Source of the DNA: a virus
Virus record (IMG/VR): IMGVR_UViG_3300047472_000449
Length of the DNA: 64,000 nucleotides
Direction: 5' to 3' (one strand)
The stretch's first letter is position 1. The number at the start of each line of letters is the position of its first letter. Positions 7,214-44,774 of the stretch are shown one piece after another. Both the position numbers and the translations under genes were made by a program. The notes beneath the pieces are model-generated. The model saw nothing but the letters and a program-made list of their open reading frames with translations, was not told the origin of the DNA and did not search any database.

Positions 7214-7372
7214 TTAGCGGTTACGCAGTTCCCAATCCAGGTTCGCCGGGCGGGTCGCGGTGACCGAAGGCGACTTGGCTTCAGCGGTGGCCGAGGTTTT
7301 CACAGCTTCACCTGCCATCGCAACGGCGGACAGGGACATTGCCACAACAACAGCCAGTACGGTACGTTTCAT
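7214..7372 (-). CDS. Secreted LRNR peptide, copy A (52 aa)
   Basis: MKRTVLAVVVAMSLSAVAMA-GEAVKTSATAEAKSPSVTATRPANLDWELRNR; GGAG RBS; own promoter. Confidence 0.85.
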   Translation of the reverse strand: MKRTVLAVVVAMSLSAVAMAGEAVKTSATAEAKSPSVTATRPANLDWELRNR

Positions 7373-7403
7373 GTGAAGCTCCATCTGTTTGGTTGATGTG
7401 TTC

Positions 7404-7443
7404 ATTATGACAAGACCCCTCAGTAATGTCAATGCTATTTACA
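7404..7443 (-). promoter_or_regulatory. Promoter/operator of peptide copy A
   Basis: TTGACA (7427-7432), 17 bp, CATAAT; TGTCAAT-GCT-ATTTACA. Confidence 0.75.
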
Positions 7444-7456
7444 CTAAATTGTTTGG

Positions 7457-7999
7457 TTAACCTGCATGCTGGGTCAAAAACAACGCTCTGGACTTGATGG
7501 CAGCGCGCACAATAGCATGCGCCACATCGCCGTAATCGCCGCCAAAGTATTCTTGAACGACCTGATGGGAAGGAAGGCGCTTCCAGGCACTGCCATCTGC
7601 AAAATCCAGATTGATCTTCAGGCTGCTCAGCAGGCGATAGAGATCCCCCTCATCGGTCAGCGGATTCCACAGCCAGCCGAAACCGCCGTCGCGCATCCGG
7701 TGACTGCTGACGCCTTTGCACGCGGGTTTTGAAAAGTGAGGGTGATCATCATGGACGTAGATGCCGATGCCGTGTTGATGATCCCACCATGTGCCGCCGA
7801 GCGGCCCCACACCGTTGACCATCACACCGTCCTCAATGCCACAGGCACGCGTGGCCATCTCCAGCAACTCGCGATCCGTGAAGGACTCCAGGTCGAGGTT
7901 GGCCGATGCCATCAGGGGGCGATTGGGACACGGCAGGTTTCCAGAGCCCAGGTGCTTCTCTCCGCAGGCCATGCAGGTGTATCCATTCCACGCATTCAT
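7457..7999 (-). CDS. Phage-type hypothetical protein (TDRELLE...WNPL.D.GD...AIVRAA family)
   Basis: Motifs typical of small phage proteins; N-terminal CxxC. Confidence 0.65.
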   Translation of the reverse strand: MNAWNGYTCMACGEKHLGSGNLPCPNRPLMASANLDLESFTDRELLEMATRACGIEDGVMVNGVGPLGGTWWDHQHGIGIYVHDDHPHFSKPACKGVSSHRMRDGGFGWLWNPLTDEGDLYRLLSSLKINLDFADGSAWKRLPSHQVVQEYFGGDYGDVAHAIVRAAIKSRALFLTQHAG

Positions 8000-8025
8000 G
8001 CTCTAGTGTCCTTTATGTGATGGGT

Positions 8026-8502
8026 TCACGCGCACATGGCAACGATGGGCGCTGGCTGGTTGATCGGGGCGTTCTCGATCATGTTGGCAAGCTCGAACAT
8101 CCGGCGCAGGATCGTCGTGGTGAGCTTGTTGGCCTTGGCCTCGGTCAGCGGCGTGTGTGCTGTGCAGTAGTTCTTGAATGCACTGGCCGTGGTGTCGTAA
8201 TAGCCCTTGCCTTCCAGCACCAAGATGCGATCCGTCTGCTTGTTGGCTGCCCATGCTGTCACGATAATCTGGGTGCTGAGAACGGATTCAGAAGTGAGAA
8301 AAATCTCCAGTTCAATGCTCCAGCTTTTCTCGCCGTCGTCACAAATGTCGGTGCCAATGCAGTAGGACTTGTCACTTTGACTGTAGTGATGAATATTGAA
8401 TTCTGTGAAAAAATAGCGCACGCCAAGATTTTCGATCAGGTGTTCCATGCGCGGCGCAAAGCCTTGGGTTTGTTGTGAGTCCTGCAATTTAAGTGCTCGC
8501 AA
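8026..8502 (-). CDS. Hypothetical protein
   Basis: 158 aa ORF in the co-oriented minus-strand run; start uncertain. Confidence 0.6.
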   Translation of the reverse strand: MRALKLQDSQQTQGFAPRMEHLIENLGVRYFFTEFNIHHYSQSDKSYCIGTDICDDGEKSWSIELEIFLTSESVLSTQIIVTAWAANKQTDRILVLEGKGYYDTTASAFKNYCTAHTPLTEAKANKLTTTILRRMFELANMIENAPINQPAPIVAMCA

Positions 8503-8553
8503 TTAAGGGGTCAAAAAATGATCCCCGGCATCGGCCAGGGATCAGGTGTTGGG

Positions 8554-8982
8554 TTAAAGGGTTGCATTGATCTGTTCGAGGCGCACTGCCACGGCGATCA
8601 TTTCCTTGAGCAGCGTGATCGCAGCGAAGGCGTTGGCATCTGGAACCTCCCACAGCTTGCAATGCTCGATGAACAAGGCGACGGCTTTCTCTTCAGCGTA
8701 GCCATGTTCGTAAACTACCTGCTTCTCGGTAACACCGACATCATCCTGCAAAAATTCCAGGGCGATGGAGTAAAACAGTCTTGATTTCGAATCGCGCATG
8801 TCGATATACAGCGTCAGCTCTACAGCATCAGGGCCTTCTGCCTCAGGGTCGGTTGACGCCATCGTTGCGACCGGCCCGGTAATGTCGTAACCATCACCCA
8901 TGTCCATGTGCTGCAAATTCGGCAGCACTTGATCGAGGTTAAGAGGTTTGATTGCAGCTTGAAACGCTTGTTGCATGTCCAT
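8554..8982 (-). CDS. Hypothetical protein
   Basis: 142 aa ORF. Confidence 0.65.
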   Translation of the reverse strand: MDMQQAFQAAIKPLNLDQVLPNLQHMDMGDGYDITGPVATMASTDPEAEGPDAVELTLYIDMRDSKSRLFYSIALEFLQDDVGVTEKQVVYEHGYAEEKAVALFIEHCKLWEVPDANAFAAITLLKEMIAVAVRLEQINATL

Positions 8983-9010
8983 GGCGAACTCACTTCATTT
9001 CGGGTAAAGA

Positions 9011-9328
9011 TTAGTTGTTGGCTTCTTGCGCTTTTTCACGTGCCAACAGCGCATTCCAGGCAGGCAATGTCCACGGGACAGATCCCTCTTGCATACGCTC
9101 ACGTTCGGTGAGTTCTGCGTACGGTTTACGGCCTTCTAGCTTGCGCCATTTAGCGTCGATGTCAGCCATATGGCCATCAAGAGTTTCCTGACCCGGCATT
9201 TTCATGACGGTTTTTTTGGAATGGTATAGCTCCCACCCCTGAGTCCCGTCCATGATCCAGCAAGGAGGAACCTCAGTGCCGAGGTAGCTGCGTTTGCAGC
9301 CATTATATCGTACTCTGGACATCTGCAT
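9011..9328 (-). CDS. Hypothetical protein
   Basis: 105 aa ORF; promoter TTGACA-17-TATTAT at 9350-9378. Confidence 0.65.
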   Translation of the reverse strand: MQMSRVRYNGCKRSYLGTEVPPCWIMDGTQGWELYHSKKTVMKMPGQETLDGHMADIDAKWRKLEGRKPYAELTERERMQEGSVPWTLPAWNALLAREKAQEANN

Positions 9329-9403
9329 TCCTCACGCGGCAAGGAGACAATAATATCTATATATTAAATATTTGTCAATTACAGTTTACTTGCCATCGGT
9401 CGA

Positions 9404-10570
9404 TCAATCTTGGCCAAACAAGTCTCGGGTGAAGGTCTTGTCGATCACATCGGCAATCTCGGCGGTAGCACGATTGGCCACGATCACGTCTGCGCGGCGT
9501 TTGAAGTCAGACAGATCCGTCAGTATCGTGGCATCGCAAAAGCTGTCCCCGCTGATTGTGGGCTCGTACACGATCACCTCCACTCCTTTGGCTTGCAGTT
9601 GCTTCATGACACCTTGGACGGAGGACGCACGGATGTTGTCCGAGCCCGATTTCATCACCAGACGATAAATCCCGACAACCTTGGGGTTGAGCTTCAGAAT
9701 GGATTCGGCAATAAAATCCATGCGTGTTGTGTTGGAGTCAACAATGGCGCGAATCAGGTTGTTCGGCACGCTGGAGTAGTTGGCCAACAATTGTTTGGTG
9801 TCTTTTGGCAGGCAGTAGCCGCCGTAGCCGAACGAGGGGTTGCAGTAATGATTGCCGATGCGCGGATCGAGCCCGACGCCCTCAATGATTGCCCGCGAGT
9901 CCAAGCCATGCATGGCCGCGTAAGTATCCAGCTCATTGAAGTAGGCGATACGCATGGCCAGGAACGTATTGGAGAACAACTTGATCGCTTCAGCTTCTGT
10001 CGGAGGGGTCAATAGCACCTCCACGTCAGCTTTCAGCGCCCCTTCCAACATTAGTTTGGCAAAGGCCTGCCCCAGCGCTGTCGTGTCGCCAACGACAATC
10101 CGCGAGGGATGGAGGTTGTCGTACAGGGCTCGGCCTTCGCGCAGAAACTCGGGGCTGAAGAGGATGTTCTGGCGCTGGAAGCGCTGGCGCATCCGCTCGG
10201 TAAAGCCGACCGGCACCGTGGATTTGATCACAACGATGGCATTGGGTTGAATGGCCATGACATCGCTAATGACTGACTCGACGGTATCGGTATTGAAGAA
10301 ATTGGTGTCAGGGTCGTAATCCGTGGGCGTGGCCACAATGACAAACTCTGCGCCGTCGTAAGCATCGTACTTGTCGAGCGTAGCCCGCAGCTTCAGATCT
10401 TTGGTGTCCAGATACTCATCCAATTCTGGGTCAACCACAACAGAGCGACGTTCATTGAGCGCCTGCACCCGCTCAGGGGCGATGTCGAGTGCAACCACCT
10501 GATTGTGCTGAGCCAGAAGAACCGCATTGGACAGACCCACATACCCGGTGCCGACAACTACAATCTTCAT
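9404..10570 (-). CDS. ugd: UDP-glucose 6-dehydrogenase
   Basis: 388 aa from [16 protein letters not shown] (Rossmann GxGxxG); SPEFLREG; catalytic [14 protein letters not shown] motif. Confidence 0.95.
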
Positions 10571-10600
10571 GTGAACCCCAGCTGAGTTTTGAATTGTCTG

Positions 10601-10996
10601 AAAAGACATAAGGCCGATCCCTCGAAAGAAATCGGCCTTATGTTGCAAGAAGAACACAACAGCTTCCCGCACACACCGTTCTGCTGACTTGGAGGCGGCT
10701 ATTTCAAGGATGACTCCACCCGTCCTGGCGAACGTGCTTCAAAGTCTCGCCGCTATCCTAAACACCGCATCAGCAGATTGTGTTAGGCAACTACGTCCCT
10801 CTGTGGTTGCGGCCAGTCGGCGATGACTGCGACGCGTTTTACCTCATCGGGTGGCCGAAGCTCCCGTGGAACCACAGTGGCATAGATGCCACTGGCGTTT
10901 TTTGCTCGGCTTCGAGAGTGCCTAATTCTCTCCACCGAGGCTTTTTTGAGTTTCGCCCCGCGTCGGCTTGGCGCACTCTAAGGACTCAAGGTCAGT
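10601..10996 (-). ncRNA. Candidate ~395 nt structured RNA or attenuating leader of ugd
   Basis: Promoter TTGACT-17-TATACT at 11003-11031; multiple hairpins; terminator hairpin 10606-10643 about 30 nt before the ugd ATG. Confidence 0.5.
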
Positions 10997-11064
10997 GGCC
11001 TCAGTATAATAAGACCTCTTCAATCAGTCAACAGAAAAAACATCGTGTATGGGCCAGAAACCCT

Positions 11065-11538
11065 TTAATTAATGGTAAATCCTGCTTCCGCCAACGCCGC
11101 CATGGCTTGTTCAATTTTCTGACGTTCAACAGCCTGGGCCTCGGGTTTAATTCCCAGCAGGTAGATCAGCGGGTCGCTGGTCAGGTTCTCTGGTCGAGGG
11201 TCGAAGAACGAATCGTTGCAGAACACAGCAATGTGGCGTTTGTCGAGATCAACAACGTAGCACCATGTGTGCGTGTCGGTTTCCGTATTGGGGAGTGCAT
11301 CCTTGCTCATCAAATCCCAGGCCGTATTGTCCGCACGCACCGCGTCACTGTAGCTTCTGAAGTGGAGGTACTGAAGGCTGTGGAAGTTGTGATCCAGGCC
11401 ATGTTCCTTGCCCGCACCGCCCGTGGTGATCCAGTGCGCGAGGATGCTCAGAACGTGTGTCGGATAGCCATCGCTGCGCTGGGTAGTCGAGATCACTTCG
11501 CTGTTGTTGATGATCTGAATGGATGCAGGCGTTCCCAT
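11065..11538 (-). CDS. Phage-type hypothetical protein (SDGYP motif)
   Basis: 157 aa; promoter TTGACT-17-TATACT at 11588-11616. Confidence 0.7.
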   Translation of the reverse strand: MGTPASIQIINNSEVISTTQRSDGYPTHVLSILAHWITTGGAGKEHGLDHNFHSLQYLHFRSYSDAVRADNTAWDLMSKDALPNTETDTHTWCYVVDLDKRHIAVFCNDSFFDPRPENLTSDPLIYLLGIKPEAQAVERQKIEQAMAALAEAGFTIN

Positions 11539-11625
11539 GGTTCAATCCTCTGAATTCGGCAGGGTGGAGCATGAATCGAAGGTGCTCAGTATAACGACGC
11601 CGACATAAATAGTCAATGTAATTTA

Positions 11626-12057
11626 CTATTTTTGGGCGGTTTTGGAGGCTTTTGTAGAACTCTCTTGCCATTGCAATCTGAGTTCGTCCCAGGCTTTCCG
11701 GGTGAAGCTTTCTGGCACCCTCCGTTGGGTCATGATGCACTGTAGCTGCCAGTCGGATAGGTTTTCACGCTCTTTCTTGTTCGGGTATTTGCGCTTCGAG
11801 GGATTGAGCGCGTTGTTGTAGTAATCGACGCGATCCTGAAGCGACAGTTCATGAAAATCGTCGTCGATTCCTTCGGAAAACCCTTTAAGGGCTTCGGTTT
11901 GAATCTCGTTGGGATACTGTTTAAAGATTCTAATGGCTTCACCAAACAATTTCATTCGCTCGGTAGAGCCCGCGTGCCAAGGCTCGTGTGCGGGCGCCCG
12001 GTTGAAACGCTCTAGAATAAGATCTAGCGCTTGTTGATCTGCGGCTGAAATCTGCAT
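11626..12057 (-). CDS. Hypothetical protein
   Basis: 143 aa; AAGGA RBS; promoter at 12173-12200. Confidence 0.7.
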   Translation of the reverse strand: MQISAADQQALDLILERFNRAPAHEPWHAGSTERMKLFGEAIRIFKQYPNEIQTEALKGFSEGIDDDFHELSLQDRVDYYNNALNPSKRKYPNKKERENLSDWQLQCIMTQRRVPESFTRKAWDELRLQWQESSTKASKTAQK

Positions 12058-12268
12058 GGATTTTCCTTTTTTGATCGAGCGTGTTTTTTGGGCAAGGATT
12101 TTTTGTGGTCATTCCACTCGGGGCATCCTGCCTGTTAGGCACTCAGCGGCTTTTAGACCAATAAAGAAACGTATTATATCGCCATCATGGATTTTGTCAA
12201 CATGACTGTCATTCAGCCCATAGCGTAAGGCGTCATGTGCTATAATTGATGGAAATAGAGGGATTTTC

Positions 12269-13087
12269 ATGAAGCAAATTCAAGAAGTGATTCGACTGGT
12301 ACGTGAATGCCTGGACAGTGGTTTTGCCACAACAGAGCTGGGTAAAAATTCCATGTATCAAGATTATGTTCGGTTCCATGTCGGCGACAACGCGCAGTAT
12401 GTCGCTGATGTCGCGGGTAAGGAGCCTGTAGAAATAAGCATTGCTCGACGTTTGATGCAGGGCAACCTGAATCTGGCCTTCGTTGCGCAGGATCAGTCTG
12501 TAGCGCCGCAGGTGCTTGCGATGCTCAAGGAGGTCGAAGGATTGACTCGTGAAGTCGGCTTCGACTTTGGCAAGCATGGTGCGGATCTGGCATTTGCTCA
12601 TGTCATTCCTGAGCTGTACACCAAGGAGGTTTTGGTGTTCCAGAACACCATCGTCATCACGGCAGACGATGTTACAACGTCCTATTTCGATCCTGAAAAA
12701 TTGGATAAAAAGGTGATGTTGGCGATGAATGCCGCTTATACCAACGAGGCCATGTTGGAACTGGATGCCTTGGGTGCTTATCGCCCTGTTATGAAGCTGA
12801 CAGTGCCCGATCTTTTTGACCCGGTTGACACCCTTCAGGCGATAAGACGCACTGAGTTCAGGGGTGTTGGAGAGCTGGCAGACTATGGCAAGGTGGAGTT
12901 GCTTGAGGGGATTGATCCAGCCACTGTAAAGCTAATCGGAGACTCGGCGGTATTACGCTTGGACGGCAAGGATTACCGGGCCGTTTGGGATCAAGTCCAG
13001 GTGATAGAGGGCTTCAAGGGCGAGCCTGCTGTTGAGCCTAAGCTTGAGCAGAAGCGCTCGATCACTTCGGATGGCCCTAGCTTCTGA
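12269..13087 (+). CDS. Hypothetical protein
   Basis: 272 aa; GAGGG RBS; extended -10 TGCTATAAT upstream. Confidence 0.75.
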   Translation: MKQIQEVIRLVRECLDSGFATTELGKNSMYQDYVRFHVGDNAQYVADVAGKEPVEISIARRLMQGNLNLAFVAQDQSVAPQVLAMLKEVEGLTREVGFDFGKHGADLAFAHVIPELYTKEVLVFQNTIVITADDVTTSYFDPEKLDKKVMLAMNAAYTNEAMLELDALGAYRPVMKLTVPDLFDPVDTLQAIRRTEFRGVGELADYGKVELLEGIDPATVKLIGDSAVLRLDGKDYRAVWDQVQVIEGFKGEPAVEPKLEQKRSITSDGPSF

Positions 13088-13154
13088 TCGTCTGAATTGA
13101 GGCTGGCCATTAGTCAGCCATATTGACATTTTACAGTGGTGTTGTTATCATGTT

Positions 13155-13550: not shown

Positions 13551-13588
13551 GGTTGGCCATTCCGGGCGTTCATTTGATTGAGTACAGC

Positions 13589-13617: not shown

Positions 13618-13630
13618 CTCGACTCGACCC

Positions 13631-17851: not shown

Positions 17852-18240
17852 TGGTGGAGCCGGGGGGATTTGAACCCCCGTCCGTCAGTACTCCGCTGTC
17901 GGTACTACATGCGTAGCCAGATCTATTAAGTTAACCCGTGGCGACCCGATTGGCAGGGTGCGTTGGGCGAGTCGTGTAATGTTTAACTGCTTCGTCCACG
18001 ACGTACTAGGCAGCGATCCTGTTCTATCTGACAATCAGTTCGGGTTTACAGGCATCCCCTAGTGACTGCTGGCACCGAAGTGACCAGAAGTGCATGTCAG
18101 CTGCAATTAAGCAGCGAGAGCAGCACCGAAGGTTTCGTCATTGGCAACTATAAAAGTCGCAACAGTGGATTTACGAGTTCTGTTACCAACTCGGCATGCA
18201 CCTAAAGTTTCGTTACCAGCGTCGAATCCTAATCGGCCCC
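17852..18240 (-). ncRNA. ssrA: tmRNA (transfer-messenger RNA), tag ANDETFGAALAA
   Basis: 5' GGGGCCGATTAGGATTCGAC; 3' GGGGGTTCAAATCCCCCCGGCTCCACCA; tag reading frame 18107-18145. Confidence 0.97.
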
Positions 18241-26846: not shown

Positions 26847-27563
26847 TTACGCTGGTACTGGAAAATCCCTGATGCATTCGTTGAGGTATTGGTTAATCAA
26901 GAATACAACAGCTTTGAGCTGCTCAGGATCGTGTTTTCTTAATTTTATAATAATGACGTAATTATTATTACCATTGATATGTGCCGAACTGACACCCGTC
27001 CCTTCTTCAATCATTCGCTCAAGTTCACTCCAGTTTCCAGCCGATCTTCTCTCGTGGAGTGCCATTGCTTGGCGTTGCGTCATCTTAATTTCATATTGAT
27101 AGAGGGATAGCCGTGGTTTCAGATCTGTCCTGAAGTCTTCAAAACGGTAACTGTGTTCAGCGGGGCTATTATTTTCCATGTGCTGAGCTTCAATTTTCAC
27201 CGCTGATCGCTGACAACTATAGTCCGTGGCAAATTGCTGAATGAGCATTCCTTCCACCAGTTTTAGGTCATCGAAGCCTTGGTACGAAACAGTGGTGGTA
27301 AATTCAGCAATTTTGTCATTAGACGGTACAGACAACCTGAAGGCCGCGCAGTAGTTGTTTCTGCCTTCGATGGTTTTGCGCCTTACTTGCCCAGAATGGC
27401 CTGGAAGTGGCTGAAACTCCAATAGGTCTTTGTCGCAGAGAGCTGCAATGGCAGTTTTGTCTGCTGGTTCAAAATCAGTCCAGTCATCATGGCTGTATTT
27501 TTCAAGCGCTTGTTTTTGCTGTTGAGTCAGTCGTGGAGTTTTACTGGGCATCTTGTTTTCCAT
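26847..27563 (-). CDS. Hypothetical protein; N-terminal domain shared with 25161
   Basis: LCDKDLLEFQP..G..G..RRK.....YC. Confidence 0.7.
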   Translation of the reverse strand: MENKMPSKTPRLTQQQKQALEKYSHDDWTDFEPADKTAIAALCDKDLLEFQPLPGHSGQVRRKTIEGRNNYCAAFRLSVPSNDKIAEFTTTVSYQGFDDLKLVEGMLIQQFATDYSCQRSAVKIEAQHMENNSPAEHSYRFEDFRTDLKPRLSLYQYEIKMTQRQAMALHERRSAGNWSELERMIEEGTGVSSAHINGNNNYVIIIKLRKHDPEQLKAVVFLINQYLNECIRDFPVPA

Positions 27564-28479
27564 AATTGTCTGATCTAATTATCGTGAATAGTTTTTGGCG
27601 TTTGCGGTCAAAATAGAACTTTTTGAGAGATTCGCTCAAACTATCGAATGCGTGTCGGTTGTAATTGAATACCCTATCGAAATAGTCGTTGGCTGCATCG
27701 TATTTAAGGCATTTGTGGGCGACTGAGCCCAAACAAAGCTCGGCCATCGCCATGTTCTCAATGTCATCTGTATCCAGTGCGGCTGCCCACATTAGCGCGG
27801 TATCTTTGGCTGAGGCATACGAACCTGACTTATAGTGTGTCCGTGTTAACAGCCCTGACAAGACTGCAAATTGTTCCCAGCCTTCTACAGGCTGTGGTAA
27901 TAACTGTACGGCCTTCTCGGCAATAGTTCTGCTTTCAAAAAAGCGTCCTTGTGCAAAGCAATTCTCAGCTTCGGCAATTAGGCTATCAATCTTTTTATCA
28001 ATGAATGGATATTCTTTAGCTAATACTGATCGGCGAGGCAGCCTTGATTTTCTTTCTGTGTAATAGAAGCGCAGGTATTTGTCATCGCGATGATCGAAGG
28101 GCAGTGTGTGAGAATTAGCGTATACCTGATCAAAGATGGCAAAAGCTCTTTCAACCTCGCCTAGTTCAAAGTGAGTGACCCCTAGGTCAACCAGAATCTT
28201 CTGGCATCTTGCATTGATAGGTAGTTCACTGGCCCGCTGCACCCAGGGTCTGGCAGAAGCAAAATCGCCGAGCTGGAAGAAACTTTTATAAATCGAGCCC
28301 AGTGTGATCATTTCAAACAAGTCGGGATCATCAGAGTCGCCATTCATCGCGGTATTCCATGCATGAATAAAAAGATGAACAGCGTCTTCGTGCTTCCCTT
28401 CAAAGCTCATTTGTGTGGCGACATTGATGTGATTCCAGACATCATGTATCCATAATCGATCAAATTCGGACAAACTCAT
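27541..28479 (-). CDS. TPR-containing protein made of two duplicated halves
   Basis: Two G.[FY]ASA...LG..[HA]...A...FD.V...F....FY..RK repeats. Confidence 0.7.
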   Translation of the reverse strand: MSLSEFDRLWIHDVWNHINVATQMSFEGKHEDAVHLFIHAWNTAMNGDSDDPDLFEMITLGSIYKSFFQLGDFASARPWVQRASELPINARCQKILVDLGVTHFELGEVERAFAIFDQVYANSHTLPFDHRDDKYLRFYYTERKSRLPRRSVLAKEYPFIDKKIDSLIAEAENCFAQGRFFESRTIAEKAVQLLPQPVEGWEQFAVLSGLLTRTHYKSGSYASAKDTALMWAAALDTDDIENMAMAELCLGSVAHKCLKYDAANDYFDRVFNYNRHAFDSLSESLKKFYFDRKRQKLFTIIRSDNYGKQDAQ

Positions 28480-34901: not shown

Positions 34902-35200
34902 CAGCCTGTAGGTTAGAGGAATTCAAGTCTTTGCTTGATTACTTATTATCTCACAAAAGCTTTTGTTCAATTGTCGCTGGAGTGGTTGCGGAAATAGCTC
35001 TTCGTGGTGAGTTACTATCAATTTGAGGTTGCTGATAGATAAAATCTACATAAGTGCTGGCTATGAGCCATTGACACGCATCGACCAATCGCTATGATCA
35101 GCACACCAGCCAAGCGCAAACCGGCTGGCCCATTTTCTTAGCAGTTAGCAGGCCCTAAAAACCATGAACACCACTACCTGCTTGAGAAATGGAGATTCAC

Positions 35201-35460: not shown

Positions 35461-35494
35461 GAAAAAGCCCAAGCAGCGATGCTTGGGCTTTTTG
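35461..35494. terminator. Bidirectional intrinsic terminator
   Basis: AAAAAGCCCAAGCA-GCGA-TGCTTGGGCTTTTT. Confidence 0.85.
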
Positions 35495-35515: not shown

Positions 35516-38512
35516 TTAACCGCCACCTTGGCATACGCGGTTGCAGTAGTACGTGCCGGTAGCTTGCTGGTACTTTGGTTGTCCAGAGTAAGCTACGGTT
35601 TCTACGCGGTATGGAACCGCTGGATCGGCTGCCCAGCCACTGCCATTCCATGTGTAGCCAGCCGCGCCACGTTGCTGGTTACGGTAGCAGTAGGCAGTTT
35701 GAGTGAAGACCACGCCTTGGTTGTAGGACGAAGTAGCTGGTGCCCATCCACCACAGCTGTAGAAGTCACCTGCCCAAGCCCACGCTGAGAAATCCATCAG
35801 GTACGTTCTGTAGGTCGGCTGGCTGCCCAGCGTTTGTCCTTCAGCAACGGGGGCACCGACGTTACGATAAGCCCCTGTGTTGGTTTCATACTGACGATCT
35901 TGACGCGTACGGCTTTGGTTGACGTAGCAATAGGCCGTTTGGGTGAACTGCGTGGCAGTGGTGTAATTGCTAGGTGCCGGTGCAAAGGCGCCACAGCTGT
36001 ACAGGCCTGAAGAGTTGGCCCAAGCAGTGTACGTCGGAGTCGTGGCTACCCAGTTTTCTTTAGTGCCGGTTGCAGCACGAGTGCTCGGCTGATTACCCAC
36101 GGTCGTGTTTTCAGCTCTGTAAGGGCTGGCCGAATCCGGTGTCCATGAGCCATTGACCATGTAGTAGCCTGCACGACCACGCTGCATGTTTCTTTGGCAG
36201 TTGCTGGCCGATTGAGTAAATCCAGTACCCATGGTGACCGTGGATGGATCGGGTGACCAGTTGGTGCAGTTGTAAGGGTCACTGCTGAATACCCAGCCGT
36301 TGAAGTCTTCAAGGTAGGCACGGGTGTTGGATTGGCCTGTCGCAGTTTGTGTTTCGGCAACCGGCGACCCGCTATTGCGAATTGCCCCAGTGGTGGTCTC
36401 TGTTTCTCTGTTTTGTCTGCTGCGTGTCTGATCCACACTGCAATTGGTCGCAGTCTGAGTAAACTCTGTGCGTTCCGAGTAGGCGCTTCCCAGCGGTGCC
36501 CAGTTCGAGCAGTTGTACGGCGCTGCTACGTTGGCCCACGCGGTGTAGGCTGGTGTGGTGGCAACCCAAGTTTCCTTCACGCCAGTGGCGGTCTGGGTAT
36601 TGGTTTGACCTGTCAGTGTCTGAGCTTCTCCGGCTACAGTCACAGGTACGGTAGCGCCAGACTTATGATCCACATAGGACTCGGCACGGGTGCGCGTTTG
36701 ATCCTGTTTGCAGTCCGTGGCGGTCTGAGTAAAGCTCTGACCCACAGTGATGGTGGTCGGCGACGGAGACCAGTTCGAACAGGCATACTTGCCGTTGCTG
36801 TTTGTCCATGAACCCAGGGTCACGCTGTAAGTGCGAGTGGCCGACTGAGCGGTCAGGGTTTGGGCTTCAGCAACTACTGCACCTTTGTCACGGATGGCCA
36901 AGGTGGTGGACTCCTGCTCGCGATCCTGACGGTTGCGCGTCTGGTCAGTTTTGCAGTCGGTAGCCGTTTGAGTGAACGAACCTGTCGCCGTTTTGCTGGA
37001 GCCTGCTGGTGACCAGTTGCTGCACGCGTACTGACCGTTGGTGGTTGTCCACGCGGTGTACGTTGGGGTAGTCGCCATCCAGGTTTCTTTGGTGCCGGTC
37101 GCAGTCTGGGTGCTGGTCTGATTGCTCAGGGTTTGGCTTTCAACAGTGTTGCCTGCGGCGACAACAGATCCGGTTTTGTGATCGACATACGACTCAGTGC
37201 GAGCACGTTTTTGATCCTGTTTGCAGTCGGTTGCCGTCTGGGTGAAGCTCTGACCAATGGTGACAGTGGCCGGTGCCGGTGACCAGTTTGAGCAAGCGTA
37301 TTTCGCGCCGTTATCAGCCCAGGCAGCCAAGGTTACTGTGTAGCTGCGTGAGGCCGATTGACCTGTAAGCGTTTGTGCTTCAGCCACCGGAACGCCCTTG
37401 TTGCGGATCTCGCTGGTGTTCTGCTCCATTTCACGATCCTGACGCGTGCGCGCCTGATCGGTGGTGCAGTTGGTCGCGTTCTGCGTGAAAGTGCTGGTAC
37501 TGGTTTTGATCACCGGGTTCGGTGCCCAGTTGGTGCAGGCATTTTGCGCACTGGTATCGACCCAAGCAGTGTAAGTCGGTGTCGTGGCCATCCACTGCTC
37601 AAGCGTACCCGTCGATTCCTTGCTGCTGGCCTGACCGGTCAGCGTGCGGTTCTCGTTGGGCTTGGCTACTGGAACAACCAGATTGCTCTTATTGTCCTTG
37701 TAGGATTCAGCACGAGTACGGGTCTGATCCAGTTTGCAATCAGTGGCGTTCTGGGTGAATTTGATACCCTTGCCGATGGTTTCCACAGCCGGTGACCAGT
37801 TGGTACAGGCATAGCTTTCACCCACAGCTGTCCAGCTACCCAAGGTAACCGAATATGGCCGGGTCGCGGTCTGGCCATTCAGCGTCTGCTGCTCGGTGAT
37901 CGACTCGCCGTTGTTGCGAATTTCGGAGGTGAACTTCTCCTGTTCGCGTTCCTGGCGCTGGCGCTCCTGATCGGTTTTGCAAGTGCTGGAGGTTTGCGTG
38001 AAATTGCTTGTGGTGGAAAAGGTCGAAGGGTTTGGCGACCATGCCGTACAACCGTACAGCGCGTTGGTGTCGATCCAACTGGTGTAGGTCGGTGCAATGC
38101 CCAACCAGTTCTCCAGAATGCCGACCGCATCCCGCGTTGATGAGACGGTAACCTTCTGCTTGATCGTGTATCGAACGCCGTCCTTCACTTCTTCTTTGTT
38201 GATATTGTTCACACGATAATTCTGCGCACCTTTTTCCTGATCCTGAAGGCAGTCGGTCGCAGTTTGTGTGAAAGAAACACCCTTGCCCTGTGAGGACGTG
38301 GAGGGCGACCAGTTTGAACACCCGTACTTGTCGCCCACATCTTCCCACTGATCTTCGTACTTGGTGATCACCGTCCAGTTAGGTGGCAGATCTGACGAAA
38401 TCAGGGTGTAGTTGTAGCGAAATTTACTGGGTGATTCTGTTGCAGTTGCTGCATGGGCTCCCGTGGCGGTAGCGGCCACCAGGAATGCAAGGTGTAACGC
38501 GTGTAACTTCAT
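35516..38512 (-). CDS. Large secreted Cys/Trp-rich repeat protein, 11 modules (998 aa)
   Basis: Start MKLHALHLAFLVAATATGAHA; 11 C-x-x-[WF]-[SA]-P modules; ends CNRVCQGGG; paralog of 3317. Confidence 0.9.
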   Translation of the reverse strand: MKLHALHLAFLVAATATGAHAATATESPSKFRYNYTLISSDLPPNWTVITKYEDQWEDVGDKYGCSNWSPSTSSQGKGVSFTQTATDCLQDQEKGAQNYRVNNINKEEVKDGVRYTIKQKVTVSSTRDAVGILENWLGIAPTYTSWIDTNALYGCTAWSPNPSTFSTTSNFTQTSSTCKTDQERQRQEREQEKFTSEIRNNGESITEQQTLNGQTATRPYSVTLGSWTAVGESYACTNWSPAVETIGKGIKFTQNATDCKLDQTRTRAESYKDNKSNLVVPVAKPNENRTLTGQASSKESTGTLEQWMATTPTYTAWVDTSAQNACTNWAPNPVIKTSTSTFTQNATNCTTDQARTRQDREMEQNTSEIRNKGVPVAEAQTLTGQSASRSYTVTLAAWADNGAKYACSNWSPAPATVTIGQSFTQTATDCKQDQKRARTESYVDHKTGSVVAAGNTVESQTLSNQTSTQTATGTKETWMATTPTYTAWTTTNGQYACSNWSPAGSSKTATGSFTQTATDCKTDQTRNRQDREQESTTLAIRDKGAVVAEAQTLTAQSATRTYSVTLGSWTNSNGKYACSNWSPSPTTITVGQSFTQTATDCKQDQTRTRAESYVDHKSGATVPVTVAGEAQTLTGQTNTQTATGVKETWVATTPAYTAWANVAAPYNCSNWAPLGSAYSERTEFTQTATNCSVDQTRSRQNRETETTTGAIRNSGSPVAETQTATGQSNTRAYLEDFNGWVFSSDPYNCTNWSPDPSTVTMGTGFTQSASNCQRNMQRGRAGYYMVNGSWTPDSASPYRAENTTVGNQPSTRAATGTKENWVATTPTYTAWANSSGLYSCGAFAPAPSNYTTATQFTQTAYCYVNQSRTRQDRQYETNTGAYRNVGAPVAEGQTLGSQPTYRTYLMDFSAWAWAGDFYSCGGWAPATSSYNQGVVFTQTAYCYRNQQRGAAGYTWNGSGWAADPAVPYRVETVAYSGQPKYQQATGTYYCNRVCQGGG

Positions 38513-38760
38513 AGCGCACCTTATAGGTTTAATGGCTTTTATTATCGCTACAATAATATCACGCAAAGCGAAGGAATTACTGATTAAACGGTTAACTGTT
38601 GATTTATTTTTACGTAAAACACAAAACTTCTTTACGAAATGAACAATAGTCCTTAATGATAATTGATTCGCATCAATTATCTGATTTTTGTCGTCTTGTA
38701 GTAGCGTGACTTTCTGTCATTTTAAGCCGTCTCTTTGATAACAACTCAAAGGAGTGGGTC

Positions 38761-39009: not shown

Positions 39010-39034
39010 TGGCAGAGCCTGCAAGCGGCACGGA

Positions 39035-39624: not shown

Positions 39625-39633
39625 ATTGATCCC

Positions 39634-40482
39634 TCACTGTTTGCTGGCGGGAATAATGATGGTGGTGGTGTCGCCTTCCAGGGTTGCTGCCAGATCAGCC
39701 GCTGCCTTGTAGCCAGTGGTGACATAAGCACGATCATCCTTACCTTCACGGCGCACCAGCACCACATGAGGCTCACTGTCGAACTGGTGTCGCAGGGCTA
39801 GACCAAACATGTCTGCGAATATGTCGGCTTTTGCCTCACCAAACTCATCTGCAAAAAACTGGAAAACCAACTCGCGAAAACTGGCGCCATTACTGAAGTC
39901 ACCGGTGAAATTGGGCTCCAGGGTAAATGGATCAAGGGACGGTGAGTCAGTCATGGTTTGAAAGTGGTTGGCAAAATAGTCGCTGACCGCTTGGTGGTTG
40001 GCTGTACTTTCGCCAGACCAGCGTTTTTGCAAAGCTACGGCAATGTCAAAAAGTGAAACCCGCGCCGCGAAACCAGTAACTGGGGGGTTGAAGCTGTAGT
40101 AATCCCGACGAGCATGCCCCGGTGGCCCAAAGGGTTCGGGCTCGGAAGCCATGGCTTTATCCAGCTGCTCAAAATACTGAGTGGTGTATTTGGCCGCATT
40201 GTTGAAGATGAACACGTCACCTTCGGCGTTCGCTTGAATGTAACCCTCGACCAGTTGGAAGGGCGAGAGGTTGCCGTTCTTCGCCAGCCAATTCCCGGCC
40301 CTGGGGCGCAGCATTTTTTCATCCACTTGTGGGTATCGAGCCGAAACACGGTGATCATCGATGTAATCACATACCTTTTGCTGGTCGCCTTCAAAGAACA
40401 GATTGAGCAGGTTTTCAAGACTTGGAACCGGGTCGCTGCCAAGAACCTTCACCATCGGTTGGTGAGTGTAATAAGGGTGCAT
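39634..40482 (-). CDS. Hypothetical protein, two-domain member of the 33081 family
   Basis: Start MHPYYT (AAGGAG RBS); perfect promoter at 40520-40548. Confidence 0.75.
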   Translation of the reverse strand: MHPYYTHQPMVKVLGSDPVPSLENLLNLFFEGDQQKVCDYIDDHRVSARYPQVDEKMLRPRAGNWLAKNGNLSPFQLVEGYIQANAEGDVFIFNNAAKYTTQYFEQLDKAMASEPEPFGPPGHARRDYYSFNPPVTGFAARVSLFDIAVALQKRWSGESTANHQAVSDYFANHFQTMTDSPSLDPFTLEPNFTGDFSNGASFRELVFQFFADEFGEAKADIFADMFGLALRHQFDSEPHVVLVRREGKDDRAYVTTGYKAAADLAATLEGDTTTIIIPASKQ

Positions 40483-40653
40483 GAAAACTCCTTTCATCGA
40501 CATCGACTGGTATCGTTGAATTATACCCACCAGCCACGTATTTGTCAATATGAATGACTGCACCACCCAAGAATTTGACCATTTAATAATGTGTAGTGTG
40601 ACGAAAGATCGGCATTGTCCGTCTACTGATAAACATGACAAAAAGGGATTTAC

Positions 40654-40899
40654 ATGAATCTTTGGTTTTGGGCAGCTGTTCTGACGACAATTTTTCGCGT
40701 TTTTAAACTTGAGCCCCTTGGGATCAAAGGGCTGTCGTGGCTGGTGATCGCTTTTTGCTTGATCCTGGCCGGTGTCACCGCCCTCTTCTCTTTTGGCATT
40801 CTGGGTCAGATCCTGCTGGTGCCGGTATTTATCGGTCTGATCTACGCGTTGTTTGCAGCGGGCATGATGTTTCGTCTTTTTGGCCGAAACCGCTATTAA
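40654..40899 (+). CDS. Small membrane protein (paralog of 38761)
   Basis: 81 aa, hydrophobic. Confidence 0.7.
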   Translation: MNLWFWAAVLTTIFRVFKLEPLGIKGLSWLVIAFCLILAGVTALFSFGILGQILLVPVFIGLIYALFAAGMMFRLFGRNRY

Positions 40900-40900
40900 C

Positions 40901-41422
40901 TCAGGGGAATTCGCGAGCTACCTGATGAATTATTGCTTGTGGTTCATCGGCCTTGTACTTCTCCAGAAAGTAATCCCGGAAGTTTTCTGCATTTTTCTCC
41001 CCAATAATCAGGTGCGCCGTGGTGGTCATGACCATTGAGCGTACATTGACGATGTACGGCTCCCAGTCCATTGCGTTCCTGATCGCCTGTTCGTATGCCT
41101 GACGATAGCTGTCAGGGTATTCATGCTTGGTTCTGTACACAGCCTGGATGATCTCTCTGAGGCTGTTTTTACCGTGTTTTTTTACTTCAAGGACATTGGG
41201 CCGCAGATCAAACGGATCGTCCATAGGGCGAGCCCGTAGAAGCCGCTGGTGTTGCTCCAGATAGTCTTTGACGGCGCTGTTCACAAACTCGGCTTTGACG
41301 CGACCGCTGAAAAACACCAACACCATTTTCTTGATGGAGTTTTCGGGGATTGGATGCTTCTTGAACAGGGGTTCATGGGTGTAAAAATCACACAAGGATT
41401 CCCAAGCTTCAATTTTGCTCAT
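40901..41422 (-). CDS. Hypothetical protein, single-domain member of the 33081 family
   Basis: FYTHEP...AVKDYLEQH...DPFDLRP...SLREII. Confidence 0.7.
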   Translation of the reverse strand: MSKIEAWESLCDFYTHEPLFKKHPIPENSIKKMVLVFFSGRVKAEFVNSAVKDYLEQHQRLLRARPMDDPFDLRPNVLEVKKHGKNSLREIIQAVYRTKHEYPDSYRQAYEQAIRNAMDWEPYIVNVRSMVMTTTAHLIIGEKNAENFRDYFLEKYKADEPQAIIHQVAREFP

Positions 41423-41486
41423 GATGATTAATTACTCTTTGTTTATCCTATTTTTAGCAAGGCTGGTGAGCTTTGCTTTTTGTTCA

Positions 41487-41876
41487 TCACTTAGAATTCT
41501 GGCCTGATTTATCAGCAACGCCGATGAGCTTTGCCTTTTGTTCAGCTGTCAAAAGTTTTAATAGTTGCTTATCACTGGAAAAAACTTTCGCTACATTGTC
41601 TTTCTCAGAATCATGCTCAGCTTTTGACACCAAGATGGACATACAATCAAGCCGTGGCGTTCCGCCATCCAAGCATTCTATCAGCGGGGTAAGCACTTTT
41701 TTGTTTAATTCAGATTGCTGGCTTGCCTTCTCAATATCCTTATCAATAGCAATGTTGTTGGTAAGATTAAAGACAGCCAAACACCCTGTTAGGATGAGCA
41801 AGGCCATCGAGAATGTCATTATTAAATCATGATTTATAAATCCATTAGACCGGCTCTTAACGTGCATATGTAGCAT
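41487..41876 (-). CDS. Membrane-anchored or exported hypothetical protein
   Basis: N-terminal hydrophobic helix; start uncertain. Confidence 0.55.
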   Translation of the reverse strand: MLHMHVKSRSNGFINHDLIMTFSMALLILTGCLAVFNLTNNIAIDKDIEKASQQSELNKKVLTPLIECLDGGTPRLDCMSILVSKAEHDSEKDNVAKVFSSDKQLLKLLTAEQKAKLIGVADKSGQNSK

Positions 41877-42083
41877 CCTAAAAATAAAACAATGATCACA
41901 TATGCGCGCAACTAATGCGACAATAATTTAGTGGAATTCACAGTCTTGAATTACTTTGAATAGATTCCTAACGCCCCCTCTTCGAGGGAATAAGCCAGCC
42001 GGTGCTTGCGCCTCTTCCCCGCACCTGTGAACGAAAAAAGGAGAGCCGTAGCTCTCCTATTATCCGATCACACTGGTGAGTGG

Positions 42084-42608
42084 TTAGAGCACTGGCAGAA
42101 TGTCTTCAATGGCTTTGATGCGAACCGCAGGAGGGGCTTTTCCAGCTGCATCGGTCTTGCTGAAGCAGGCCGCGACTTCCAGGGCTTCGCCTTGGCCGGT
42201 CACGAGGTACATCCGCTCAGCATCGCCCTCACCCACGATCACCGCATAACGACGATTGTCGATCAGCGCTGCGCCCCAGAGCTTGAAATACTCCTCGGCG
42301 AGTTCGGCGGTTTCTTCCGGACTGAAGAACTTCGCGTACATCTTGGCAACCAGCTCACGCAACGAGGGATCTCTGCCCGACTCGACCTTGCCGACTTGAG
42401 GTTGCAGCAACAGCGGGTCGGTGGTCGGATCGCTGAGCATTTCCATTGTGTGCTGGGCGATGTACTGGTCACGCAGCTTTTCAGCCTCGGGAGCGTCAAA
42501 ATGCTCGGCGTAATAACGGTAAATCACACTGGCCAATGACTGCTCGGAGGTGTTGAACCGGGCAAATTGAGGCTCGATGGTAAAGAATGGTGCGACGGCT
42601 TGCGACAT
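42084..42608 (-). CDS. Hypothetical protein, single-domain member of the 33081 family
   Basis: FFTIEP...DQYIAQH...DPLLLQP...SLRELV. Confidence 0.7.
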   Translation of the reverse strand: MSQAVAPFFTIEPQFARFNTSEQSLASVIYRYYAEHFDAPEAEKLRDQYIAQHTMEMLSDPTTDPLLLQPQVGKVESGRDPSLRELVAKMYAKFFSPEETAELAEEYFKLWGAALIDNRRYAVIVGEGDAERMYLVTGQGEALEVAACFSKTDAAGKAPPAVRIKAIEDILPVL

Positions 42609-42622
42609 GGTGTTGATCCTTT

Positions 42623-42883
42623 TTACCGTTGGGCAGCAGCGACAGTTGAGGTTTTAGCATCGCTTGGCGGCGGGTACACGCCAAAACGGGTCAGCGACGG
42701 CATCAGGCGATGAGTGACCCAGCGTTGGTGGTCGCGACTCAGGTCATCAAAGCGACCTTCTTGCATGCACTTGTTGATGCGCTGAATGTCCAGCTCGCAA
42801 GGCTCTGCACCGTCGTAATGAGGCATTGGTGAGCCTGCAATGGCGCTGGCCACGTCAGGAGGCAGAAGAGGATTGTCGCGCAT
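42623..42883 (-). CDS. Hypothetical protein
   Basis: 86 aa; AGGA RBS. Confidence 0.55.
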   Translation of the reverse strand: MRDNPLLPPDVASAIAGSPMPHYDGAEPCELDIQRINKCMQEGRFDDLSRDHQRWVTHRLMPSLTRFGVYPPPSDAKTSTVAAAQR

Positions 42884-42948
42884 GCTGGATGTCCTGCGTC
42901 GTTGTGGTATTAGAGCAGGCCCGACAATAGGGCCTGCTTAACGGTGCG

Positions 42949-43290
42949 TTACTGGGCCTGGGTTTGCGCGGGTTCAGCTTCTGGCGCCAGCTCATCCTCA
43001 ATATCGACGTAGCCGATCCACAGGATTTCGTGAAGGGCGTCCCAGAAGTCTTTGCTGATGGCCAAGTCGCTGGCGCCACCTTCAATAAAGCCCTTCTGGC
43101 GCCAGTCGCTGAGAATGGTGCGTTCATCGGCGTTGATCTTGCGCGGGTCGATGTTCTGGCCGTTCATGATGAGCGACTGGATGTAAGGCATCAGACGCAG
43201 TTCACGTTGGGTGATTTCGTAACCCAGCAATACTCGGGTTTTGGCCTTAATGGCGTCAGTCAATTGTCCGCGTTTTGCCATGATCTTCAC
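42949..43290 (-). CDS. Phage-type hypothetical protein
   Basis: 113 aa; perfect promoter at 43320-43348. Confidence 0.7.
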   Translation of the reverse strand: MKIMAKRGQLTDAIKAKTRVLLGYEITQRELRLMPYIQSLIMNGQNIDPRKINADERTILSDWRQKGFIEGGASDLAISKDFWDALHEILWIGYVDIEDELAPEAEPAQTQAQ

Positions 43291-43387
43291 CTTTCCCAGT
43301 AAATTCTGAATATGGGTCTATTATAGCGCCGCAACCCGTGATTGTCAATCACAGAAACACTTCCTTGGGCTTTTCCTGCCCCAACAA

Positions 43388-43418
43388 AAAATCCCCGGTC
43401 ACAAGACCGGGGATTTTC
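43388..43418 (-). terminator. Terminator of the LRNR cluster
   Basis: AAAATCCCCGGTC-TTGT-GACCGGGGATTTTTT (minus-strand reading). Confidence 0.8.
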
Positions 43419-43433
43419 GACGCCGAGGCGGTA

Positions 43434-43871
43434 TTAGCGGTTGCGAAGATCAGCTTCCAGGTTTTTGGGCTTGGTCGCATCACTGGCGACTACGCCGCTG
43501 GCAGCATCGGTGGTAACTTTGCCGGACAGTGGGCGTGGAATGTCAGGGGTGCCAGGGGCTTTCACTTCGCCAGTCGGTGCCGGGCCGGTGGGAGTTGGCG
43601 CGGTTTTGCCGGATGCAGCGGCGGTGGCTGCGGACTTGGTTGGAGCAGCTTTCGCGGATGCGGCGGTTTTGACCGGTGCAGCTTTGGCGGTTGCGGCGGC
43701 TTTGGCTGGTGCAGCCTTGGTCGATGCGACTTTTTCGACCGGTGCAGCTTTGGCCGAAATAGCAGTTTCAACCGGTGCGACAGCGGTGGCTTTTTCTTGA
43801 GCCATGGCGTTCACCGACAGGCCGGACAGCGCTACGGCCATCGCGAGGATCAGGGAGTATCGTTGTTTCAT
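43434..43871 (-). CDS. Secreted LRNR peptide, copy C (145 aa; KAAP-rich linker)
   Basis: Signal peptide; ends ATKPKNLEADLRNR. Confidence 0.85.
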   Translation of the reverse strand: MKQRYSLILAMAVALSGLSVNAMAQEKATAVAPVETAISAKAAPVEKVASTKAAPAKAAATAKAAPVKTAASAKAAPTKSAATAAASGKTAPTPTGPAPTGEVKAPGTPDIPRPLSGKVTTDAASGVVASDATKPKNLEADLRNR

Positions 43872-43956
43872 GTATTTCTCCAGTCAGGTAATCAGGTTTT
43901 GTTGCCTTCGCCCCCGTTCAACGGGGGCGATCAGGCGGGTGGCCGAGGCGGCGGAA

Positions 43957-44175
43957 TTAACGGTTACGCAGTTCCCAGTCCAGGTTTTTCGGACGAGTCG
44001 AGCGAGGCGATTGCGATGGCGAGGTGCTGGTTGCTTTCGGGGTGGCATCAGTGGTCGCTTGCGACGCATCTTTTGCAGTTTGGACAGCGACCGGTTCTTT
44101 CGGTTGATCTGCGGCCACGGCGGCAACGGAGACAGCGGACAGCGACAGCGCCAGAACGAGTGCCAACTTTTTCAT
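43957..44175 (-). CDS. Secreted LRNR peptide, copy D (72 aa)
   Basis: Signal peptide; ends STRPKNLDWELRNR; promoter at 44217-44245. Confidence 0.85.
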   Translation of the reverse strand: MKKLALVLALSLSAVSVAAVAADQPKEPVAVQTAKDASQATTDATPKATSTSPSQSPRSTRPKNLDWELRNR

Positions 44176-44312
44176 GTGTATCTCCAGGGTCAGAACAGTT
44201 TTTTCTTTGATGGTTTATTATGATGCTTCTTTTACTATTTGTCAATAGCATTTACTGCTATTTGTCGCTTCGACCTGCTCACACTTTTGTGGGCAGGCCA
44301 AAGGCGATGGGA

Positions 44313-44471
44313 TTAGCGGTTACGCAGTTCCCAGTCCAGATTCGCCGGACGGGTCGCGGTGACCGAAGGGGATTTGGCGGTAACGCCAGCTTTCGGCTGA
44401 TCAGCGGCCATCGAGACAGCGGAAACGGCGGACAGCGACAGAGCCAGAACGAGTGCCAGAGTCGATTTCAT
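44313..44471 (-). CDS. Secreted LRNR peptide, copy E (52 aa; not in ORF track)
   Basis: Manual translation MKSTLALVLALSLSAVSAVSMAADQPKAGVTAKSPSVTATRPANLDWELRNR; GGAG RBS; promoter at 44514-44542. Confidence 0.85.
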   Translation of the reverse strand: MKSTLALVLALSLSAVSAVSMAADQPKAGVTAKSPSVTATRPANLDWELRNR

Positions 44472-44615
44472 GTGAATCTCCATTGCGTGACAGGATGTTT
44501 GCTTTGATGGTTTATTATGGCGATTCTTTTACTAATTGTCAATCTTATTTACATTTGTTTTTTGAGACATTGGCCCGCCTCACTCACTGGTGAGGCAGGC
44601 CAAAGGCCGTGGGGT

Positions 44616-44774
44616 TTAGCGGTTACGCAGTTCCCAGTCCAGGTTCGACGGGCGGGTCGCGGTGACCGAAGGGGACTTGGCGGTAGCGGTGGCCGAGGTT
44701 TTCACAGCTTCACCTGCCATCGCAACGGCGGACAGGGACATTGCCACAACAACAGCCAGTACGGTACGTTTCAT
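44616..44774 (-). CDS. Secreted LRNR peptide, copy F (52 aa; not in ORF track)
   Basis: Manual translation MKRTVLAVVVAMSLSAVAMAGEAVKTSATATAKSPSVTATRPSNLDWELRNR; perfect promoter at 44806-44834. Confidence 0.85.
   Translation of the reverse strand: MKRTVLAVVVAMSLSAVAMAGEAVKTSATATAKSPSVTATRPSNLDWELRNR

Follow-up and report, generated by a model that had tools for sequence, protein, structure and literature searches.

Phage T4 directs two small early proteins, Spackle (Sp, gp61.3) and the RI antiholin, to the periplasm in a Sec-dependent manner, where they serve superinfection exclusion and lysis inhibition, the partner of Sp being the gp5 lysozyme and that of RI the periplasmic domain of holin T; small envelope-directed peptides of Pseudomonas phages are a further precedent. 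A free C-terminus carries the activity of other small envelope proteins: PDZ proteases of the DegS/Prc type read hydrophobic or aromatic C-termini, and MucE of Pseudomonas aeruginosa and outer-membrane protein (OMP) tails activate AlgW/DegS through WVF and YxF tripeptides. Arbitrium peptides form codes that differ between phages, and the Gram-negative outer membrane blocks the free passage of peptides larger than about 600 Da. In this work we analysed a stretch of viral DNA of 64,000 nucleotides (nt) (IMG/VR record IMGVR_UViG_3300047472_000449; the window hereafter), in which six genes encode small proteins that share a C-terminus ending in LRNR. We found that this LRNR family is extremely rare, undescribed and real. 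The original prediction, made from the letters of the window alone, had proposed an undescribed, exported peptide amplified in its element, and database searches, signal peptides and the six copies bear this out, with export being very probable; its description of the genes was accurate, and its functional guesses were only partly tenable. The six LRNR genes, with product lengths in amino acids (aa), are the following.

7214-7372, minus strand: copy A, 52 aa, predicted mature peptide of 32 aa, ending in TRPANLDWELRNR and the stop codon
35201-35443, plus strand: copy B, 80 aa, mature peptide of 58 aa, ending in TRPKNLNWDLRNR and a TGA stop codon, with different synonymous codons
43434-43871, minus strand: copy C, 145 aa, mature peptide of 121 aa, with an AKAAP-type repeat linker, ending in TKPKNLEADLRNR and the stop codon
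43957-44175, minus strand: copy D, 72 aa, mature peptide of 51 aa
44313-44471, minus strand: copy E, 52 aa, mature peptide of 30 aa
44616-44774, minus strand: copy F, 52 aa, 96% identical to A, opening the tandem array F-E-D-C

The listing of open reading frames (ORFs) gave all six genes, with products of 52-145 aa, exactly where they had been proposed. Alignment of the six proteins divided each of them into three parts: an N-terminus made of MK, a hydrophobic segment and AxA, an unalignable low-complexity middle, and a C-terminal block. The signal segment of all six started with MK, had a hydrophobic core about 15-19 residues long and carried an A/V/S-x-A site, and a GGAG sequence was found 6 nt before each ATG, both by DNA alignment and by direct reading; the predicted mature parts (30-121 aa) consisted of A, T, S, P and K for 45-71% of their length, with no Cys and at most one aromatic residue. 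The GGAG ribosome-binding site, the Sec-type signal peptide and the A/T/S/P/K linker of variable length that had been noticed at first reading were therefore recovered in every copy, and the proteins are very probably exported through a Sec-type pathway, judging from these signal segments.

The C-terminal block of the six copies read T[RK]PxNL[DNE][WA][ED]LRNR, with the stop codon immediately after it. Eight residues (T, P, N, L, L, R, N and R) were invariant in 6/6 copies and in 20/20 aligned family members, all 20 of which ended in Arg-Asn-Arg, so that the conservation reached the stop codon. This agreed with the core proposed earlier, except that the Trp lies outside of it: the position is occupied by W, A or L, being Ala in copy C and reading NLDLELRNR in the orthologues of B. 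The short forms shared more than the tail, roughly K-S-x-L-S-G-A-S-T-[KR]-P-x-N-L-[DE]-W-E-L-R-N-R, suggesting that the ancestral product was probably a mature peptide of about 33 residues and that the long linkers were a later elaboration in the window lineage. Linker length varied even among orthologues (proteins of 123-145 aa), which indicates that the linker is a spacer and the tail the constrained part.

A word-indexed search of 5.8 billion proteins returned 15 clusters of the family, and an exhaustive profile search of 1.84 billion representatives found the family alone plus one extra member (P0017), for a total of about 16 clusters among billions of proteins. The motif matched no characterised family in Pfam, NCBIfam, PHROGs or PDB. 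With the six peptides, the matches in Pfam and NCBIfam all stayed below threshold and fell on the signal peptide or linker (Asr, DUF7311, baeRF and PAGK); no PHROGs family was matched by more than one ORF of the window, though four LRNR genes were in the set; and the best hit of the PDB sequence search (E = 0.93) fell on a signal peptide. A tblastn search of plasmids and phages had been called for at the outset; in PLSDB plasmids and GenBank phages, megablast and tblastn matched neither the array nor the peptides, nor a neighbouring protein of 444 aa. Scans with the motif pattern returned 18 matches in IMG/VR, none of them a relative, and 18 in the GTDB genomes, again with no relative, where by our own estimate about 17 matches were expected by chance; the idea that host proteins carry an LRNR tail which the peptides mimic was left unsupported by these GTDB figures. 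Longer, fused forms of the family were looked for and not found, although this is weak evidence; an ESM Atlas feature search gave no usable match, and a full-text literature search for the motif gave nothing relevant.

The members fell into three lineages. In the window lineage, with a guanine-plus-cytosine (GC) content of about 50-51%, orthologues of B, C, D, E and F were found on JGI contigs of 357,826 and 134,772 bp, which come from one metagenome and are both broken within the repeat gene that separates B from the array. The second lineage is the 497,968-bp contig Ga0308163_10000024 with 37% GC (L003) and the third the 131,678-bp contig SRR25078857_1901 with 25% GC (L005 to L007); each has one LRNR gene, ending in STKPKNLEWELRNR and STKPKNLDWELRNR, respectively, as against six in the window element. 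The tail NL[DE]WELRNR was kept across these lineages of 25, 37 and 51% GC, and BLASTP among the DNA read for the three of them detected no other common protein.

Comparison of the last 15 codons of 11 genes, with GC contents from 25 to 51%, showed that every invariant residue was written with at least two synonymous codons and that TAA and TGA both occurred as stop codons. The tail of copy B differed in its codons CGA, CCA, AAT, CGC and AAT, besides its TGA stop. In every orthologue pair (window versus the related element, L001 and L004) synonymous codon differences exceeded the non-synonymous ones; replacements lay mainly in the signal peptide and linker, and those in the tail affected variable positions only (three codons between the B orthologues and one between those of F), with zero changes at invariant motif residues and with the LRNR end and the N-L pair unchanged. 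The sense frame was the only one open in all eight genes, that is, the six of the window and those of the AT-rich relatives, and Rfam gave no match in the LRNR genes. Together, the codon, orthologue-pair and frame comparisons indicate that purifying selection acts at the level of the peptide, as had been deduced from the synonymous codons and different stop of copy B. An antisense frame is also open over all six window genes, and its "mirror" ORFs (for example 43338-44210, plus strand) were considered and rejected, since the equivalent frame had 4-5 stops in L003 and L005.

Potential promoters were searched by means of a consensus scan. Sequences matching 11-12 of 12 positions, TTGACA-16/17-(T/C)AT(A/G)AT, were found upstream of A, B, D, E and F. 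The same scan gave copy C no promoter of its own; C lies downstream of D and is probably co-transcribed with it. In the array, F, E, D and C follow one another head to tail, and a single good intrinsic terminator is located after C. The promoters and terminators associated with the LRNR genes are listed here.

7404-7432, minus strand: promoter of A, TTGACA-17-CATAAT, with TG before the second hexamer
35071-35098, plus strand: promoter of B, TTGACA-16-TATGAT, with a leader of about 95 nt
44217-44245, minus strand: promoter of D, 11 of 12 positions
44514-44542, minus strand: promoter of E, 11 of 12 positions
44806-44834, minus strand: promoter of F, TTGACA-17-TATAAT, 12 of 12 positions
7167-7197, both strands: bidirectional intrinsic terminator after A, A7-hairpin-T7, common to the convergent Trp/Cys-repeat gene at 6124-7062; from direct reading of the sequence, not listed by the terminator scan
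35462-35493, both strands: bidirectional terminator after B, common to the convergent 1016-aa repeat gene at 35516-38566; from direct reading
43385-43417, minus strand: intrinsic terminator closing the array after C, a GC hairpin plus T6; from direct reading

The strong promoters claimed for five copies are present, but they are not special, because the 64-kb window has 37 near-consensus sigma70 promoters of this kind (TTGACA-16/17-TATAAT, 11-12 of 12 positions), 29 of them on the minus strand and including sites at 3085, 12200, 16998, 23170, 43348, 44834 and 61003. Most of the 37 have a symmetry of the ATTGACAAT type around the -35 box, a style also seen in L005 with its 25% GC, and the set may represent a class of early promoters instead of an operator regulon. 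In the B leader (35105-35200, about 95 nt), CCAGCC...GGCTGG forms a hairpin with a T-rich run behind it, possibly an attenuator or else the point where a transcript from upstream stops. In the window, L003 and L005 alike, the LRNR gene is a stand-alone unit with its own TTGACA-N17-TATAAT promoter, GGAG site and terminator.

RNA libraries were also inspected. Soil metatranscriptome run X17 had three contigs, with 95-99% identity, that cover parts of the array.

43865-44018: 3'-end of D and the D-C spacer
44276-44483: whole of E
44616-44801: whole of F, beginning at most a few bases away from the start that the -10 box predicts

Contigs of a relative were found in a rice-paddy RNA run, with about 88-90% identity over C, D and F. 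We take these contigs as a hint that the LRNR genes are probably expressed.

A protein of the window mapped to JGI contig Ga0495643_0000001 (L008), of 1,136,430 bp, where copy A is found in the same gene order, and it is present on three contigs larger than 1 Mb; a relative is the 876,603-bp contig Ga0495671_0000003 (L010). Candidate ORFs cover 87% of the window, nearly all of them without a family match, and several form paralogue families; the few domain matches are phage-associated (among them DUF551, DUF1653, GmrSD_N and several PHROGs). Window DNA was found mainly in rhizosphere and soil metagenomes. The window also has a complete gene for transfer-messenger RNA (tmRNA).

17852-18240, minus strand: complete tmRNA gene, 185 bits with Rfam, tag ANDETFGAALAA

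A 41-nt core of this tmRNA was found unchanged in chromosomal tmRNAs from at least 120 genomes, almost all of them of Pseudomonas and close relatives, suggesting that the host is probably of the Pseudomonas type. L003 has four tRNA genes (Arg-TCT, Leu-TAA twice and Met) at its positions 7390-8494, 1.5-2.6 kb upstream of the LRNR gene; the Arg-Leu pair shares 94.6% identity with its counterpart in the group of the Pseudomonas jumbo phage PA5oct. ORFs of L003 and L005 matched PHROGs of homing/HNH endonucleases, RNA 2'-phosphotransferase, ADP-ribosylglycohydrolase, endonuclease VII and the T4 Srd anti-sigma/sigma70-decoy families, and these matches, with the tRNAs, are traits of T4-like giant phages. 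No conjugation genes were seen in the window-lineage DNA read. We read the carrier as a giant phage-like element, which refines the "Gram-negative element" first proposed: it has a 1.14-Mb record and a Pseudomonas-type tmRNA, and to it are added the single copies in two AT-rich lineages. To our knowledge, 1.14 Mb is far above the size of described phages, and if the element is not a phage it would be an unusual megaplasmid-like element. A tblastn search with its UDP-glucose dehydrogenase did not place it near any known phage, and a literature search on megabase phages gave nothing useful.

AlphaFold2 was run on copy D with a family alignment of 19 rows. The mean predicted local distance difference test (pLDDT) score was 57.6, with values below 50 in the linker and of 89 and 84 in the last two blocks of 10 residues, and a short helix was formed by residues 65-70 (LDWELR). 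The model thus suggests a chain that is disordered except for a confident C-terminal helix. In our own geometric reading of it, the two invariant Leu residues (i, i+4) would lie on the same side as the invariant Asn, the acidic residue and the last Arg, and the variable W/A/L position would point away from the Leu-Leu side, fitting the conservation pattern.

Taken together, these results lead us to propose that the LRNR peptide, expressed early, acts in the periplasm as an effector whose terminal helix docks on a conserved target in the envelope, a reading to which we give somewhat less than an even chance. The LRNR genes would belong to the early class of a giant phage-like element; the small pre-protein would be exported after translation by the Sec system and cut by signal peptidase I, releasing an intrinsically disordered peptide of 30-121 residues into the periplasm of the infected cell. 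Its sole functional module would comprise roughly the final 13 residues, while conservation extends more weakly over about the final 20; there, a short Pro-capped helix would present the Leu-Leu face (i, i+4), flanked by the Asn, the acidic residue and a terminal Arg-Asn-Arg with its free carboxylate. Acting as a short linear motif, this helix would dock on a single conserved target in the envelope or periplasm, either a host protein or a phage protein acting in the periplasm, which the high peptide dose given by six copies and five strong promoters would titrate. The likeliest use would be the guarding or remodelling of the envelope during a long infection, for example in superinfection exclusion or in the control of lysis timing.

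Several points weigh against this proposal. Export and cleavage, the periplasmic location, the docking and the biological role are steps that we infer. The helix is not classically amphipathic, and the peptide has no second domain, so that, once the signal peptide is gone, linkers of up to 100 residues have no evident purpose. Capsid, portal and terminase genes were all absent from the window-lineage DNA read, so that the putative phage nature of this lineage rests on indirect signs, and the RNA-library contigs give neither level nor strand and may come from DNA carry-over.

Other genes noted in the window are the following.

3317-4747, plus strand: secreted Trp/Cys-repeat gene, repeats of about 95 residues
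4966-5895, plus strand: secreted Trp/Cys-repeat gene, repeats of about 95 residues
6124-7062, plus strand: secreted Trp/Cys-repeat gene, repeats of about 95 residues
35516-38566, minus strand: secreted Trp/Cys-repeat gene, 1016 aa, repeats of about 95 residues
19623-20744, minus strand: R2K-clade ATP-grasp protein, at least 14 kb from any LRNR copy
54157-56604, plus strand: fusion of flavin adenine dinucleotide (FAD)-oxidase and methyltransferase
45782-46549, minus strand: GmrSD_N (DUF262) protein

Copies A and B each lie tail-to-tail with a Trp/Cys-repeat gene (6124-7062 and 35516-38566, respectively). The four repeat proteins share the consensus W..Y.C.NWSP...FTQTATDC..DQTR.RQ, two of them have an immunoglobulin-like tail of the Big_1 type, and only five clusters of homologues were found among the 5.8 billion proteins. 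A functional link between A or B and the repeat genes was put aside: the 877-kb relative has repeat genes with no LRNR gene within 10 kb, and of the repeat-protein homologues that were found none could be assigned to contigs of the AT-rich lineages. The ATP-grasp, FAD-oxidase/methyltransferase and GmrSD_N genes are candidates for a role in modification or anti-defence, and nothing evident connects them with the peptides.

Among the functions first suggested were communication pro-peptides of the Phr/arbitrium type: processing of the exported precursor would leave a short C-terminal peptide that gets out of the cell, for instance when it lyses, and that other infected cells would detect in order to adjust lysogeny or the timing of lysis. 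All members do have the layout of AimP/Phr precursors (Sec signal, variable spacer, conserved extreme C-terminus and early strong promoter), and the window encodes two cytoplasmic tetratricopeptide-repeat (TPR) proteins, for example at 27541-28479. The nearest TPR gene is, however, 7 kb from copy B and its product is without a Pfam DNA-binding domain, and at none of five loci (A, B, the F-C array, L003 and L005) in the three lineages does an adjacent gene have a Pfam match to TPR or helix-turn-helix (HTH) domains. The same motif occurs in phages of 25, 37 and 51% GC with no divergence of code from element to element, the conserved block has about 13-20 residues instead of 5-6, and the Gram-negative outer membrane would bar its passage, all of which weakens this reading and makes it unlikely in our judgement. 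The peptides might otherwise be substrates or precursors, whose tail is modified by an enzyme of the element, through an ester or amide cross-link as in ribosomally synthesised and post-translationally modified peptides (RiPPs) or by C-terminal tagging, or whose tail is a signal that sorts the disordered chain to peptidoglycan or the outer membrane, or anchors it there. A tandem set of several small genes sharing a C-terminal core is reminiscent of RiPP precursor arrays; their T-[KR]-P-x-x-x-[DE]-W-[DE] is loosely like the microviridin core, TxKxPSDWEE; and the ATP-grasp and FAD-oxidase/methyltransferase genes could supply enzymes. Yet RiPP precursors bear leader peptides, whereas the N-terminus of LRNR proteins is a cleavable Sec signal, and neither this leader nor the adjacent ATP-grasp macrocyclase of graspetides is found here: no enzyme gene adjoins any LRNR copy, none is common to the L003 and L005 flanks, and the ATP-grasp gene is absent from these flanks. 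Moreover, copy B has Asn in place of the acidic residue at position -7, the basic residue is in most copies an Arg, which is unable to form an amide cross-link, and the tail is without a transmembrane segment, unlike known C-terminal sorting signals, so we regard this family of explanations as quite unlikely.

The other early guess, widened here to a decoy or activator of PDZ proteases (DegS/AlgW or Prc/CtpA), would have a periplasmic PDZ domain read the free C-terminus as it reads OMP YxF tails or MucE-WVF. The conservation up to the stop in 20/20 members suggests that the free carboxylate may matter, and MucE is a precedent for a small envelope protein acting only via its C-terminal tripeptide; but the known ligands end in hydrophobic or aromatic residues and the LRNR family ends without exception in Arg-Asn-Arg, and its constrained part is a helix of 9-13 residues, while PDZ domains bind a beta-strand tail of 3-4 residues. 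This guess is weakened to the point of being highly improbable. Cis-acting regulation, either by an arrest peptide that senses secretion in the way of SecM or VemP or by a conserved element in DNA or RNA rather than in the peptide, is in our view hardly credible. A signal peptide is likewise found in SecM and VemP, together with an arrest motif conserved at the C-terminus, but A, B and the genes of L003 and L005 are each monocistronic, with a terminator or a convergent gene behind them, and so have nothing downstream to regulate; conservation in nucleic acid is opposed by the synonymous variation at every invariant residue and the lack of Rfam matches already described.

Beyond the periplasmic effector itself, two wider statements can be framed: that the LRNR tail is a previously unknown short linear motif, common to giant phages of Gram-negative soil bacteria, by which they seize one conserved envelope machine from the periplasmic side, or that it is the first peptide signal between phage-infected Gram-negative cells. 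We hold that one or other of them is true to be doubtful. Either would define a new class of phage effector that is exported, disordered and "tail-only". Giant phages have hundreds of small early genes with no assigned function, and very few phage proteins acting in the periplasm are understood. The family is unusually tractable, since its active part of about 13-20 residues can be synthesised and is kept across phages with no other detectable common gene in the DNA read; identifying the target would show which envelope function giant phages need to control and could also yield a peptide probe or inhibitor of that function in Pseudomonas-like bacteria. The 1.14-Mb carrier element deserves study of its own.

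Compared with known systems, the LRNR proteins resemble in part several of them. Like T4 Sp and RI, they would be small early phage proteins sent to the periplasm of the infected cell, each binding one partner; Sp and RI, in contrast, are folded helical domains of about 75-95 residues with no sequence similarity to LRNR, whose peptides are multi-copy and predicted to be disordered save for a helix of about 9 residues. With AimP and Phr of Bacillus phages and Bacillus they share the small gene with its own promoter, the Sec signal, the poorly conserved spacer and a functional extreme C-terminus, but the LRNR host is Gram-negative, no AimR, Rap or other TPR receptor is adjacent, the block of 13-20 residues is helical and six copies with the same tail occur in one genome. 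MucE and the OMP tails are likewise envelope proteins, MucE a small one, with their activity in the free C-terminus, which is an aromatic or hydrophobic tripeptide in their case and the basic, helical RNR end in LRNR. Finally, Asr (NCBIfam NF033636) has the same succession of a signal peptide and a disordered A/K/T/P-rich stretch; the best match to it reached 22.8 bits against a cut-off of 50 and extended over the signal peptide and linker, and Asr is without the LRNR tail that defines the family described here.

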